A stretch of 64,000 nt of DNA, from the sequence record OL615013. One strand, written 5' to 3'. This DNA comes from Shigella phage ChubbyThor. Below the pieces are notes generated by a model. It was given only the letters and a program-made list of their open reading frames with translations. It ran no database searches and was not told where the DNA came from. A program made the position numbers and the translations under genes. Positions 12,816 through 61,460 of this stretch are shown here, one piece after another. Numbering within the stretch: the stretch's first letter is position 1; every line of letters begins with the position of its first letter.

Positions 12816-13622
12816 ATGAATTTGCCATCATTGCCCAGAACAGAAAAGACATATAAAAGCGACTTTTGGCCTACTGTGATCAAATATCGCGCCTTTACTG
12901 CGGGGCAACAAACTTTATTACTTCAGGTGTCAGATCCGCAAACGCCGATTGAAGAACGCGCGGCCATGATGGAGAGCCTCTTCAGCGAATGTGTAAATGC
13001 AGGTGCGCCATTCAGCAAACTACCAATCGGTGTTGTCGAAGAAGTGTTCATCCGTATGCGCATGATCGCCATCGGCGAATTGATGAAGATTCGCTACAAG
13101 TGCAATAATCAGGTTGAAGAAACGATCGATCTGGGAGATGGCCAAGAAAAGCGCCAGATGGTTCCCTGTGAGCAGGAACTGACTCTGCCTATCCCGCTGA
13201 ACAATGTAAAATGCATTGCTCAGGACGGCTTCCAGGAGACGTTTGACCTGCCGGGTGGCTATCACCTCAAGATGCGCCAACCTTCCTTCTCGGACGCCAC
13301 GGCGCTGTCTGATGCTGTAAGTGTTGAGATGATGCTGGCCACCTTTATCGACTGCCTGTACGATGATGACGGTCAGGTGTGGAAGGTTGAGAATCCTGAA
13401 GAAATCGGGATCACTCCGGAAGAGGCTACCGAGCGCCGCCGTGTGAAAGAAGCGTTTGTTGAGTGGGTGAAGGATAACATCGAATCAGATGTCATCGACA
13501 GCATTACGAAGAACTTCTTCCACAAAATACCGCGCATCCACTACAAGAGTTCAATCAAGTGTCCGAAGTGTGGTAAGGAACACAAGATCGAATTCAATAG
13601 CATTAATGAAATTTTCATCTAA
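12816..13622 (+). CDS. hypothetical protein with C-terminal zinc ribbon (CPKCG)
   Basis: ORF track 12702..13622; likely ATG at 12816 (MNLPSLPRTEK); plus-strand island upstream of gp5. Confidence 0.45.
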   Translation: MNLPSLPRTEKTYKSDFWPTVIKYRAFTAGQQTLLLQVSDPQTPIEERAAMMESLFSECVNAGAPFSKLPIGVVEEVFIRMRMIAIGELMKIRYKCNNQVEETIDLGDGQEKRQMVPCEQELTLPIPLNNVKCIAQDGFQETFDLPGGYHLKMRQPSFSDATALSDAVSVEMMLATFIDCLYDDDGQVWKVENPEEIGITPEEATERRRVKEAFVEWVKDNIESDVIDSITKNFFHKIPRIHYKSSIKCPKCGKEHKIEFNSINEIFI

Positions 13623-13771
13623 TGTTTGAAACTGATTTACTATCCTACTTCGTGATGTGTGATGAATTGAAGTTACACGGCTATAGCATATTTGAAATCA
13701 ACGAGTCGATGCCGTGGCATCTTGACTTGTTAACCGAAGCCCTCAAGGTCAGGTTGTCTAAGAAACAGTAA
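13622..13771 (+). CDS. small ORF (49 aa), start overlapping upstream stop (TAATG)
   Basis: MFETDLLSYFVMCDELKLHGYSIFEINESMPWHLDLLTEALKVRLSKKQ; below ORF-track size cut-off; followed immediately by terminator. Confidence 0.3.
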   Translation: MFETDLLSYFVMCDELKLHGYSIFEINESMPWHLDLLTEALKVRLSKKQ

Positions 13772-13795
13772 TCCCGCTTCGGCGGGATTTTTATT
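13771..13795 (+). terminator. intrinsic terminator (ATCCCGCttcgGCGGGATTTTT)
   Basis: 7-bp GC stem, UUCG loop, T-run. Confidence 0.7.
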
Positions 13796-14090
13796 GGCTT
13801 AACTGTAAAACAGGTTAACGCGTGCTCTCTTTACCTGAAATTGTTATAATGGGCTTGTTCCTGAGTCATTTGTTGGGGATCGTCTATTTTGAATCAGATT
13901 GTCAGTAAAATACCATTTTTCAAGGAGTGTTCTGAGGTGTACAGTTATTGCCTCGCTCTTATGCCTCCATGGCATTGGAATGGTGCTGCCTGCATAAGGC
14001 GGTGTGATGAGCGAAGCGAATAGGATCGAATAACAAATAAAATGAACGGAAGCAGAGCTTCCTATAGTATATAAGGCAAAATCCGCTGCG

Positions 14091-14098
14091 CATAAATA
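14091..14098 (+). promoter_or_regulatory. late-promoter-like CATAAATA upstream of gp5
   Basis: 7/8 match to TATAAATA ~35 nt upstream of the 14133 start. Confidence 0.4.
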
Positions 14099-14132
14099 CC
14101 TTCAAATCCTTGTTTGACAACCGGAACTCAAT

Positions 14133-15743
14133 ATGTTAGACAATATGAGATGGTTTTATGGCACCGTTGAAGATGTCAACGATCCAGACCAAAACGGGCG
14201 CGTCGCCGTCCGCATCTATGGCGTCCACACTGATGACACCGTCCTCCTGCCTACGGACAAACTCCCATGGGCGAAGGTGCTGATGCCTGCTTCAAACGCC
14301 TCCTCTGCTGGTTTAGGTTGGTCTCCAACGGGTATCATTCCTGGCACTGAGGTCATGGGGTTCGCCCTTGACGAAGCATACCAGAACTTACGCATCACCT
14401 GGACTTGGCCTGGGGCAAATCCCACTGATGGAGCTGACACGAATCCGCTGGCTCTCGGACAGGTCGTTCAATCTGTAGAACGTCAGGCGTACAACGCTGT
14501 CACTGACGTTCCTGTGAAACAAGAAGACGAACCACAACCAGATCCACAACCACCTGTTGGCGGGTATGATCCTGAAAAATGGATGACCATCGCTCGTGGC
14601 GAGCTGGGTGTCAAGGAGTACGCCGGAAAGTTCAACAACAACCCGCGCATTATAGAATATCACAAGACAACCTCCCTTGGCGCTTCTGAAGATGAAGTGT
14701 CGTGGTGTGCGGCGTTCGTGGGCTGGGTTATGTTGCAGGCTGGATACACGTCTACGCGCTCCGCTCTTGCCCGATCTTACCTTACATGGGGTAGTGCACT
14801 GTCAGCACCACAATATGGTGCTATCGTAGTCTTCCGGCGCGGTAACAACCCTACATTTGGACACGTGGCGTTTGTACAGAAGTTCGACGCAAACTATGTC
14901 TGGTGTATCGGTGGCAACCAATCCGATTCAGTGAAGGTCAGCCGCTTCAGCCGTTCGTCAGTCCTGGGCTACCGCTGGCCTGGTCCGGCGAATACAGCTT
15001 CAGCCGCCCCAGCGCAACAGAACGGGAAATGGTCTGAGCCTATCCCTGATCGTACCCCAAAAGAGCAGGCAACTCCGGCTCCTACAGGGCGCGTACAGGA
15101 TATTGATAACACGGGCGAAACTATGGTTCCGGCAGCGGGTGGCTCCAAGTACCCGTACAACAACGTCATGGCATCCCGAGCAGGTCACATAATGGAGGTG
15201 GACGACACTCCTGGTGGTGAGCGTCTTCATTGGATGCACATGTCCGGTTCCTACAAACAGATGCTCCCGAACGGCGACGTCGTCAACAAGTCAGTGAAGG
15301 ATCATTATGACCTGACCATGTTTGACAAGCGCTATTATGTCGGCGGGGACCACAACCTGACGGTCAAAGGAACTGAAGTGCAGCGCAAGACTGGCGAGGT
15401 CTATCACCTTCACTCCAACAACTACTCCAACGTGGTTGCGGGTACAGCGCTGATGAAATTCAGTGACCTGGCTGAGTTGCAAGCACAGAATATTCTGCGC
15501 ATCATCTGCGAGACTCTGGAGGTCGGCGGGACGTTGAAGGTTCCTAAGATTCTGGCAACAGAGATCATCGCCGACAAACTGACGGTTGCTCAGACGATTA
15601 ATGGTAACATCATATATGCCGAAGGTGCTGGTCGCGCTTCTTCTCTGTCAGGTGCAACCCCTGCATCCCCTACGGGACCAGGTGAGATTGATATCAAGGC
15701 AGAATTAAAAGACAATGGTGGTAATTTCGGCACCGAAGAGTAA
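14133..15743 (+). CDS. 5: baseplate hub / tail-associated cell-puncturing protein gp5-like with Cys-His peptidase (CHAP/NlpC-P60-like) domain
   Basis: 536 aa; N-terminal WFYGTVEDVNDPDQNGRVAVRIYGVHTDD matches T4 gp5 OB-fold opening (WFVGVVEDVMDP...RVRVFGLHTDD); central SWCAAFVGWVM ... GHVAFV Cys/His pair instead of T4 lysozyme domain. Confidence 0.75.
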   Translation: MLDNMRWFYGTVEDVNDPDQNGRVAVRIYGVHTDDTVLLPTDKLPWAKVLMPASNASSAGLGWSPTGIIPGTEVMGFALDEAYQNLRITWTWPGANPTDGADTNPLALGQVVQSVERQAYNAVTDVPVKQEDEPQPDPQPPVGGYDPEKWMTIARGELGVKEYAGKFNNNPRIIEYHKTTSLGASEDEVSWCAAFVGWVMLQAGYTSTRSALARSYLTWGSALSAPQYGAIVVFRRGNNPTFGHVAFVQKFDANYVWCIGGNQSDSVKVSRFSRSSVLGYRWPGPANTASAAPAQQNGKWSEPIPDRTPKEQATPAPTGRVQDIDNTGETMVPAAGGSKYPYNNVMASRAGHIMEVDDTPGGERLHWMHMSGSYKQMLPNGDVVNKSVKDHYDLTMFDKRYYVGGDHNLTVKGTEVQRKTGEVYHLHSNNYSNVVAGTALMKFSDLAELQAQNILRIICETLEVGGTLKVPKILATEIIADKLTVAQTINGNIIYAEGAGRASSLSGATPASPTGPGEIDIKAELKDNGGNFGTEE

Positions 15744-46720: not shown

Positions 46721-47047
46721 TTATTTGCGCAGGGCAACCACGAGTTCAGCGAGTTCGCCCATGGTAGGGTCATCGCCTTTACTACCCAGCCAGCCGTCGT
46801 CGATTTCGACCTGAAACTCTTCTTCGAGGTCCATTACAATTTCGATAGCGTCCAGTTCGTCGCCGCCGAGATCCTTCTTGGTGCGGAGACCAGCCAGCTT
46901 GTCCAGGGCATCGTTGATTACCACTTCGGCATCGACGATCCCTTTGATGCTACTCTTGTCCTCATCACTGACTTCCAGATTCAGATTGTCAGTGGCGTAC
47001 TGAGCCAGATGACGCATGACTTCAACATATGTTGGTTTACTGCTCAT
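46721..47047 (-). CDS. acyl-carrier-protein homolog lacking the phosphopantetheine-attachment Ser (GGDELD instead of GADSLD)
   Basis: 108 aa; ACP helix II signature KDLGGDELDAIEIVMDLEEEFQVEI; acidic. Confidence 0.6.
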   Translation of the reverse strand: MSSKPTYVEVMRHLAQYATDNLNLEVSDEDKSSIKGIVDAEVVINDALDKLAGLRTKKDLGGDELDAIEIVMDLEEEFQVEIDDGWLGSKGDDPTMGELAELVVALRK

Positions 47048-61120: not shown

Positions 61121-61226
61121 TTATGTATCCTCAAAATATAGTGGGGTTCAAGTCATGTTTGACGCAATCTAGTATCGCTGTGTTGTGCTTATAGAACAAG
61201 TGGCAAATTGCGCTACGCGTTATTAA

Positions 61227-61246
61227 TAAATGCCTTCGGCATTTAT
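61227..61246. repeat. UUCG-tetraloop hairpin (TAAATGCCttcgGGCATTTA) within AT-rich control region
   Basis: 8-bp stem in the 320-bp noncoding gap between gp45 and the 61461 gene. Confidence 0.45.
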
Positions 61247-61310
61247 GGACTTTATTAAAGATAATAACCTTTATTAATCCTATTCGCTTCGCTCATAAAA
61301 CAAATACTCG

Positions 61311-61426
61311 TTGTTCGTTAACACTCACAACTCGTATAATACCACGCCATTTGTTCAACAGGAAAGCAATTTTTATTCAACAGCAAAATTAATTTATTTG
61401 GTCTAAACATGCACGCGAAATAATAT
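61311..61426 (+). promoter_or_regulatory. two tandem sigma70-like promoters (TTGTTC-18-TATAAT; TTGGTC-17-TAATAT)
   Basis: Read directly; upstream of the plus-strand gene starting at 61461. Confidence 0.45.
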
Positions 61427-61460
61427 GTATGTCATGTTAACCAACACACGAGAGTAATAT

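Follow-up and report, generated by a model that had tools for sequence, protein, structure and literature searches.

The 337 nucleotides (nt) between a terminator and the start of gp5 in Shigella phage ChubbyThor probably hold a functional structured RNA, or a functional structured single strand of the same sense. They occupy positions 13,796 to 14,132 of the window, the whole 64,000-nt stretch of record OL615013, in whose numbering positions are given here. The initial annotation had singled out this gap and read it as a non-coding functional element. That reading holds on two grounds: the region is conserved, with a core that surpasses the neighbouring genes, and its helices are maintained by compensatory changes. 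The gap contains one of three related cassettes and represents a previously undescribed RNA element family of the Ackermannviridae, of a familiar general kind (the promoter-proximal structured RNA of phages), whose unusual trait is its modular, three-copy architecture. Of the roles first offered, namely a small RNA, a structured leader, or a cis element for replication or packaging, the data bear out a functional element and cannot yet choose among the three; no evidence for a packaging signal was found. The region had also been described as mostly unexplained, a view that missed its candidate internal promoters, its pseudoknot and its two paralogous copies. The fullest statement, that the gap encodes a + strand structured non-coding RNA which belongs to one of three promoter-plus-RNA cassettes and acts in cis as a promoter-proximal protein-binding module, is put forward tentatively. 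The parts of the element are as follows.

13,830–13,850, + strand: candidate promoter PA (TTTACC, 9 nt, extended −10 TGtTATAAT).
13,857–13,906, + strand: variable spacer, or 5' part of a transcript from PA; 32–46% identity to Kuttervirus and Taipeivirus.
13,907–13,945, + strand: candidate promoter PB (A-tract, TTTTCA at 13,917–13,922, 17 nt, TG-TACAGT with the −10-like hexamer at 13,940–13,945).
13,961–13,983, + strand: H-type pseudoknot; stem S1, ATGCC 13,961–13,965 with GGCAT 13,971–13,975; stem S2, CCAT 13,967–13,970 with ATGG 13,980–13,983.
13,985–14,003, + strand: hairpin P3 (GCTGCCT, 5-nt loop, AGGCGGT; seven pairs).
14,007–14,021, + strand: tandem-G·A hairpin B, of the form A-Y-GA-GC-(loop)-GC-GA-R-T.
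14,022–14,047, + strand: A-rich linker, poorly conserved (48–61% identity).
14,048–14,068, + strand: GC hairpin GGAAGC-AGA-GCTTCC (14,048–14,062) followed by TATAGT (14,063–14,068).

The gap is matched by 271 phage records, essentially all of them Ackermannviridae, and it is kept in full across four genera and in part in two more. Its best-conserved stretch, from 13,954 to 14,004, comprises the pseudoknot and P3 and reaches 84–86% identity in Kuttervirus and Taipeivirus, above the 63–77% identity of the gp26 and gp5 coding sequence in the same two genera. In Limestonevirus the gap shows 94% identity against 87% for the surrounding 2 kb. Lack of conservation and of structure in relatives had been named as grounds for giving up the idea of a functional element; the region proved to be conserved in about 270 Ackermannviridae records, its core to be more conserved than the neighbour genes, and the helices to be kept by compensatory changes. 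Between 13,857 and 13,906 no helix common to the genera was seen in the alignment, read by eye. The pseudoknot–P3 block is missing from Miltonvirus and Nezavisimistyvirus, where the gap and the G·A hairpin remain. IMG/VR loci with gp5 outside the four genera yielded no element by blastn. An IMG/VR scan with ORF2, the small open reading frame (ORF) that precedes the gap, added only Miltonvirus and Nezavisimistyvirus isolates, and the single contig recovered by a metagenome scan with an ORF2 alignment is truncated and lacks the sequence downstream.

The scans for known families that had been proposed as a check place the element in none of them. The Rfam 15 covariance models gave no match in the window at gathering thresholds; the best matches at E ≤ 10 scored 13.7–22.6 bits against thresholds of 34–100 and fell mostly over the ORF2 terminator, with nothing relevant at the gp45 cassette described below. 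ARAGORN called no tRNA or tmRNA. The literature searches made on the transcriptomes and non-coding RNAs of Ackermannviridae, Kuttervirus and CBA120 found neither a description of the element nor a transcriptome of any Ackermannviridae phage.

The fold is supported by an alignment of 22 sequences (19 distinct) from four genera. The 31 proposed pairs are paired in 98% of cases, against 34–46% for slid partners; both sides have changed in five pairs, and no disruptive change occurs in helices 2–6. Once the paralog upstream of gp6 is included, pairing is complete (100%) in 16 pairs, of which five are compensatory, pairs of both pseudoknot stems among them. The pseudoknot consists, at the sequence level, of two interlocked stems that both show covariation, joined by a 1-nt first loop (T13966) and a 4-nt third loop (TGGA, 13,976–13,979). 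Its block, CTTATGCCTCC(A/C)TGGCATTGGAA(T/G)GG, varies at two positions only among the 22 sequences. One S2 pair changes from A-U to C-G in Taipeivirus, at the gp5 locus and the gp6 locus alike, and S1 differs by two compensatory pairs between paralogs, AUGCC/GGCAU as against CAGCC/GGCUG. Taken together, S1 and S2 pair in all cells (100%), compared with 22–55% for slid partners. In P3, both partners have changed in two pairs (C-G to U-A, U-A to C-G), a U·G pair does not vary within the gp5 locus, and a further pair is G·U or A-U throughout. On the − strand these invariant or near-invariant G·U pairs would turn into A·C mismatches, which favours the + strand, as RNA or as same-sense single-stranded DNA, as the one that folds.

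Two other helices were discarded. A long-range helix proposed by RNAalifold (columns 73–77 with 193–197) was an artefact of a misaligned Taipeivirus 3' hairpin, and a helix between ACCAUUUU and GGAAUGGU, taken from a single-sequence fold, is lost in other genera. A conserved CCUCGC at 13,951–13,956, just upstream of the pseudoknot, is complementary to an arm of hairpin B at 14,009–14,019 (GAGCGA or GCGAG). The single-sequence minimum-energy fold prefers the CCUCGC pairing in place of hairpin B, which makes a structural switch possible.

The hairpin B motif is found in six genera. Its flanking Y-R pair covaries as U-A or C-G, its loops differ (GAA, TTCA, AAC, GTA, ATA), and the inner stem of the tandem-G·A hairpins ranges from 2 to 8 bp, with 2 bp at the gp5 side and 7 bp in the Kuttervirus gp6 cassette. 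The outer stems differ as well and are still complementary (AUAC/GUAU, CUUU/AAAG, CUUC/GAAG), and the gp5-side RNA of Nezavisimistyvirus carries a double-G·A hairpin of wholly different sequence. The stem of the GC hairpin, 6 bp with four G-C pairs, is likewise maintained by compensatory changes (GGAAGC/GCTTCC, GGATGC/GCATCC, GGCGGC/GCCGCC). As an intrinsic terminator of the + strand, this hairpin offers a GC stem-loop with no U-tract, its tail being TATAGTATAT. A terminator scan flags it on the − strand only, where it is followed by GTTCATTTTATTT, and no gene or convincing promoter lies downstream of 14,048–14,062 on that strand. A generic regular expression for G·A hairpins was set aside as unspecific (50 matches against 39 expected, one of them at 46,740 within a coding region), so further copies were sought by blastn and with a covariance model.

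Blastn located a 20-nt exact copy of hairpin B at 61,296–61,277 on the − strand, in the second-longest gap of the window. A covariance model of S1 and P3 scored 72.7 bits at the gp5 locus, 67 bits at a locus upstream of gp6 that lies outside the window, and at most 11 bits elsewhere over about 168 kb. The gp5-side cassette is called locus 1, the one upstream of gp45 locus 2 and the one upstream of gp6 locus 3; the two paralogs are laid out as follows.

61,226–61,440 (gap 61,121–61,460), − strand: locus 2 cassette, upstream of the gp45 sliding clamp gene; the gap is conserved in 274 phage records.
61,440–61,420 and 61,365–61,336, − strand: PA-like and PB-like promoter-like motifs of locus 2, respectively.
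61,337–61,304, − strand: hairpin A of locus 2, longer, with two tandem G·A motifs.
61,301–61,277, − strand: hairpin B of locus 2, then an AT-rich stretch and a hairpin at 61,246–61,226.
134,709–135,057 of Shigella phage Ag3, − strand: locus 3 cassette, upstream of the gp6 baseplate wedge gene; conserved in 274 records.

Locus 3 contains a hairpin A, a copy of the pseudoknot plus P3 with the same S2 and almost the same loops, and a hairpin B with a 13-nt loop. The cassettes stand immediately before major genes (gp5, gp45 and gp6), and each carries PA-like and PB-like motifs at equivalent spacing. A late promoter follows the gp5 and gp6 copies, and at gp45 and gp6 the genes on either side of the cassette point in divergent directions. 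The neighbours of locus 2 are gp45 and a small + strand ORF with a helicase gene after it, and promoters are annotated on both strands of this gap in the LIMEstone1 record. The variants of hairpin B are equal at loci 1 and 2: U/A/A in Agtrevirus, C/G/A in Kuttervirus and C/G/U in Taipeivirus. Miltonvirus has a 40-nt near-identical module at the same two loci. In every cassette examined an AT-rich stretch follows hairpin B; its length is about 25 nt at locus 1 and reaches about 60 nt at locus 2. In many cassettes a GC-rich CGCGCGAG-like motif comes after this stretch; it is not seen at locus 1 of Agtrevirus, Kuttervirus or Taipeivirus.

Two sites within the element are candidate promoters. PA has a TG at 13,842–13,843 and TATAAT at 13,845–13,850, with a predicted start at about 13,857. 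Its core, AAATTG(T/C)TATAA(T/C), is conserved in four genera, and the pattern TTWAY-N9-11-TATWAT occurs three times in the whole Ag3-like genome, once per cassette. Judged as a sigma-70 promoter, PA possesses the −10 hexamer with extended TG and no −35 hexamer at a spacing of 16–18 nt, the conserved TTTACC being only 9 nt away. PB, with a predicted start at about 13,952, is common to all three cassettes; its counterpart upstream of gp6 is TTTTCTAC...CTGTATCGT, and the one upstream of gp45 is TTTCCT...TGGTATTAT. The three-cassette alignment of PB runs from the A-tract and TTTYCW to TG-TAYNNT, and a PA-type site lies about 85–95 nt upstream in each. Genome-wide, the PB pattern has five matches where 1.45 are expected; the cassettes account for three, and a fourth is in a gap just upstream of another annotated gene. 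Within the PB region the stretch TTCTG.G.TGTA..GT is nearly invariant and shows no structural covariation. A helix GAGG/CCUC (13,934–13,937 with 13,951–13,954), first drawn across it, was rejected: it overlaps PB and is broken in Taipeivirus, and the stretch is therefore better read as promoter PB. The TATAGT after the GC hairpin is TATAAT in Kuttervirus, Taipeivirus and Nezavisimistyvirus.

Hairpins that are alike within a genome and different between related phages are a hallmark of the nut boxB sites, and this resemblance favours a cis-acting protein-binding module. Such a leader mechanism specifically is possible, short of probable. Transcripts would originate at PA, at the family-wide PB or at both, and would fold into the H-type pseudoknot, P3, the hairpin with tandem sheared G·A pairs, the A-rich linker and the GC hairpin just ahead of the late promoter of gp5. 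A phage-specified or host factor would recognise the G·A hairpin and probably the pseudoknot too; symmetric tandem G·A loops and compact pseudoknots are typical targets of protein recognition. The RNA–factor complex would then set the fate of the early or middle transcript at the GC hairpin and the boundary to the late gene: it would stop, acquire a stable 3' end or continue into gp5. The boxB hairpins of lambdoid nut sites and the put RNAs of HK022 are promoter-proximal, occur in more than one copy per genome, are near-identical within a phage and differ between related phages, and they head transcription units ahead of terminator-like hairpins. The cassette hairpins are similarly promoter-proximal, repeated in the genome and divergent between phages, with exceptions at locus 3. 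They depart from boxB in having a stem with tandem G·A pairs and an unconserved loop instead of a GNRA-like loop. They also depart from nut and put in that two of the three cassettes precede late genes; read-through here is a hypothetical extension of the analogy.

Several observations weigh against the leader mechanism or against parts of the fold. The promoters and RNA ends are predicted from sequence only, and a sigma-70 scan lists neither PA nor PB. The GC hairpin, besides lacking a U-tract, has no counterpart in the gp6 cassette, and in the Taipeivirus gp45 cassette its place is taken by a hairpin of A and T only, so the element has no uniform 3' end. Read-through is made less obvious by the two cassettes of three that precede late structural genes, since each of these genes has a late promoter of its own after the RNA. 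The analysis identified no candidate binding protein, boxA and an N-like protein not having been looked for. The compensatory changes derive mostly from a few lineage splits (Taipeivirus versus the rest, paralog versus paralog) and so represent few independent events. The folding z-scores of single sequences, at −1.1 to −2.2 for the + strand and −2.6 to −1.7 for the − strand, are unremarkable and do not separate the strands. Finally, the hairpin B variant of locus 3 differs from that of locus 1 of the same phage in Ag3 and Limestonevirus, and gene conversion could give rise to similarity between loci with no shared ligand.

The main rival explanation is an RNA-primed replication origin, which is rather unlikely overall. 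The three cassettes would be phage origins at which transcripts from the tandem promoters form R-loops in the AT-rich stretch and prime the leading strand in the manner of T4 oriF and oriG, and the hairpins, in the RNA or in the displaced same-sense DNA, would stabilise the R-loop or recruit helicase-loading or single-stranded DNA-binding proteins. T4 origins combine a promoter with an AT-rich unwinding element; several are located at switches of the transcribed strand, and an early promoter is required for oriE (PMC3016281). The layout of the cassettes may be comparable: promoter-like sites, hairpin B and 20–60 nt of AT-rich sequence, often with CGCGCGAG, at divergent gene junctions in the case of gp45 and gp6. 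The primary origin of T7 likewise has two tandem promoters followed by an AT-rich region, and the resemblance to it and to T4 oriF, oriG and oriE extends to the presence of several copies per genome, which at about 47, 94 and 135 kb of 158 kb would suit a multi-origin phage. Locus 2 is near a helicase gene, named UvsW in the 3M record, and about 3 kb from UvsY in the Ag3 record. The T4 reference record places oriE inside gene 5 (T4 79,355), with a primer RNA antisense to gene 5 and with repEA and repEB on the strand opposite that gene, which may be a positional parallel to locus 1, the cassette that abuts gp5. GCGAAGC-type mini-hairpins and Y-GA-R tandem G·A pairs are, moreover, very stable in DNA too. 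T4 origins, however, have no common sequence motif and no required RNA structure, in contrast to the pseudoknot and hairpins conserved with covariation here. R-loop formation at T4 origins is independent of specific sequences (PMC3016281), so a near-invariant pseudoknot maintained by compensation exceeds what such an origin needs. The invariant G·U pairs suit RNA more than single-stranded DNA, the A-rich linker of locus 1 is only about 25 nt long, and neither iterons nor an initiator gene came to light; the flat GC skew is uninformative. A variant in which the primer itself is structured, its pseudoknot and G·A hairpins recruiting replication proteins and the primer–template junction loading the sliding clamp near gp5, gp6 and gp45, is quite unlikely. 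It would couple the initiation of replication to the start of late transcription, and we know of no structured-primer origin of this kind in T4-like phages. Also unlikely is a free trans-acting small RNA of about 115–210 nt that ends at the GC hairpin and sequesters a host RNA-binding protein or nuclease, or pairs with mRNAs. The distance from the predicted PA start to the 3' GC hairpin is steady, at 209–216 nt in four genera (205 nt in Miltonvirus and 124 nt in Nezavisimistyvirus), and the compensatory changes of that hairpin extend over five genera. The spacer from there to the late promoter is variable (31.6% identity), as between separate units, and the A-rich linker resembles the ARN tracts of Hfq-type RNAs. 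The missing + strand U-tract and the inconsistent 3' hairpins of the paralogous cassettes argue against this role, as do the best-conserved bases, which are locked in the pseudoknot and hence not free to act as a seed. A blastn comparison of the gap with the window found no convincing complementary target except the paralogous repeat, and the fixed siting of three copies upstream of major genes is not needed for action in trans.

Very unlikely is an account at the DNA level alone, in which the gap is a promoter cluster (PA, PB, TATAGT and the late promoter) giving gp5 different timing and the conservation reflects double-stranded DNA sites. It draws on the four promoter-like sites in 260 nt and on the TTCTG.G.TGTA..GT stretch, where conservation comes with no covariation and the helix tried proved broken. 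It leaves unaccounted for the double-sided compensatory changes in five helices and the complementarity kept by the G·A hairpin while its loop and inner stem vary in length, and the strongest conservation lies downstream of the promoter-like sites. A small protein gene is the least probable account of all and can scarcely be entertained. The statement that no ORF over 20 codons exists on either strand did not survive, for the gap has five ORFs of 28–53 codons with ATG, GTG or TTG starts. Candidates are a + strand frame beginning M/V-YSYCLALMPPWHWNG... (13,937–14,023) and an ATG-initiated − strand frame of 43 codons, MPWRHK... (13,975 to 13,844). In addition, a frame across ATGCCTCC is open for 20–21 codons in three genera, and both variable sites of the near-invariant block fall at third codon positions; by our own estimate, however, a 21-codon open frame has a probability of about 36% of arising by chance. 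From one to another of Agtrevirus, Kuttervirus and Taipeivirus, 1-nt and 2-nt indels shift the frame that runs through the most conserved block, so that the C-terminal halves are unrelated, and the − strand ORF is lost in Taipeivirus. No Shine-Dalgarno sequence is conserved for the gap ORFs among the aligned genera. Substitutions between close relatives, read off the alignment, are mostly non-synonymous (about 4 to 1), yet pairwise compensatory in P3, and the loss of the pseudoknot–P3 block from Miltonvirus and Nezavisimistyvirus, which keep the gap and the G·A hairpin, also speaks against a gene. None of the ORFs combines a conserved frame, a conserved protein and a ribosome-binding site, and judged from sequence none of the five behaves as a gene.

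Among known RNA elements, the leader of T4 gene 32 provides a close structural comparison. It has a compact H-type pseudoknot with a 1-nt first loop near the transcript 5' end, followed by A/U-rich unstructured RNA. The element shares the compact pseudoknot and its one-nucleotide first loop; it differs in that no sequence similarity was seen, in that it does not precede gene 32, and in having two more hairpins before its A-rich stretch. Hairpin B recalls domain 2 of the hammerhead and the non-canonical stem of the kink-turn, where 5'-Y-GA-R-3' faces 5'-Y-GA-R-3' on a short helix, and its 5' arm in Agtrevirus reads GUGAUGA. It has a symmetric 2 × 2 G·A internal loop in all 18 cassette sequences examined, unlike a kink-turn, which would contain a 3-nt bulge. 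The hammerhead core, CUGANGA...GAAA, is approached only in Agtrevirus and Limestonevirus (GUGAUGA/UUGAUGA...GAAU) and reads UUACGA...GAGU at this site in the other genera, positions C3 and A14 not being conserved. Rfam gave no match at E ≤ 10 to the hammerhead or to any other ribozyme or kink-turn family. Resemblance to CRISPR repeats, the CsrA consensus, loop E of 5S rRNA and the sarcin-ricin loop, compared by eye, stays at the level of words. The PeSL cassettes of T4-type phages are also repeated intergenic units of promoter plus stem-loop, prone to recombination between copies. PeSLs are short and numerous and lie in hyperplastic early regions, unlike the three cassettes of about 300 bp described here, which contain a pseudoknot and G·A hairpins and stand beside core genes.

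Ackermannviridae are the ViI-like phages of Salmonella, E. coli O157, Shigella, Klebsiella and Dickeya and are widely used in biocontrol and therapy, and their gene regulation and replication origins have largely been inferred from T4. With its three copies, its conservation above that of the surrounding genes and its position before two baseplate genes and the clamp gene, the cassette is a strong candidate central control element, one that could govern the timing of transcription, the firing of origins, or both. It is also a compact, testable RNA with natural compensatory variants, a possible entry in an RNA family database and a bait for the cognate phage protein.

The setting of the gap agrees with the initial annotation in most respects. 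The window is Agtrevirus DNA, and the 2 kb around the gap show 99.0% identity with Shigella phage Ag3 (Agtrevirus, Ackermannviridae) and 87–94% with other Agtrevirus and Limestonevirus phages. The Ag3 record annotates the flanks as a gp26 baseplate hub, a hypothetical ORF of 49 amino acids (ORF2) and a gp5 baseplate hub/tail lysozyme, with no feature between ORF2 and gp5. ORF2 is present at 13,622–13,771, as described, and is followed by a terminator with a stem at 13,770–13,789 (eight pairs) and a T-run. With gp5 starting at 14,133, the gap measures 361 nt from the ORF2 stop and 337 nt from the terminator. Its unusual length was rightly noted: in a crude map of 84 ORFs the median intergenic distance of the window is 26 nt, and this gap and the one at 61,121–61,460 (340 nt) are the two longest, a ranking that discounts a spurious 53-codon TTG ORF placed by the caller inside the gap. 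The element is bounded by two features.

13,770–13,794, + strand: intrinsic terminator of the gp26–ORF2 transcript, with an eight-pair stem (five G-C) and a T-run; left boundary of the element.
14,091–14,098, + strand: late promoter CATAAATA for gp5; right boundary, outside the RNA element.

The stem of the terminator varies in sequence by genus and keeps its complementarity (AATCCCGC/GCGGGATT, AACCCCAC/GTGGGGTT, AACCCCGC/GCGGGGTT). The late-promoter-like site that had been placed about 35 nt from the gp5 ATG ends 34 nt before it; the site does not vary among 26 distinct sequences of six genera and is annotated as "putative late promoter" in the LIMEstone1 record.

A few further observations concern the surrounding sequence and the records searched. 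Ag3 has about 1.85 kb with no annotated gene at 135,835–137,687, just upstream of a four-tRNA cluster, and a G·A-type hairpin pattern, GTGAAC-GAAA-GTGAAT, at 138,283, right after tRNA-Asn. Two records, OR844944.1 ("Enterococcus phage Efm 3-10") and MN871475.1 ("Pseudomonas phage Pa-sanjiao"), carry Kuttervirus-type ORF2 and intergenic sequence, which suggests that they are mislabelled or contaminated. ORF2, here taken over 13,600–13,771, starts with ATG only in Agtrevirus, Limestonevirus and one Vibrio phage; the start codon is ATT in Kuttervirus, Taipeivirus, Miltonvirus and Nezavisimistyvirus. It lies in the −1 frame relative to gp26 and is open upstream (…DFHLIFEIDLL). A gp26–ORF2 fusion could arise by AUU re-initiation at the TAAT(G/T) overlap or by a −1 frameshift near ATTTTCATC.

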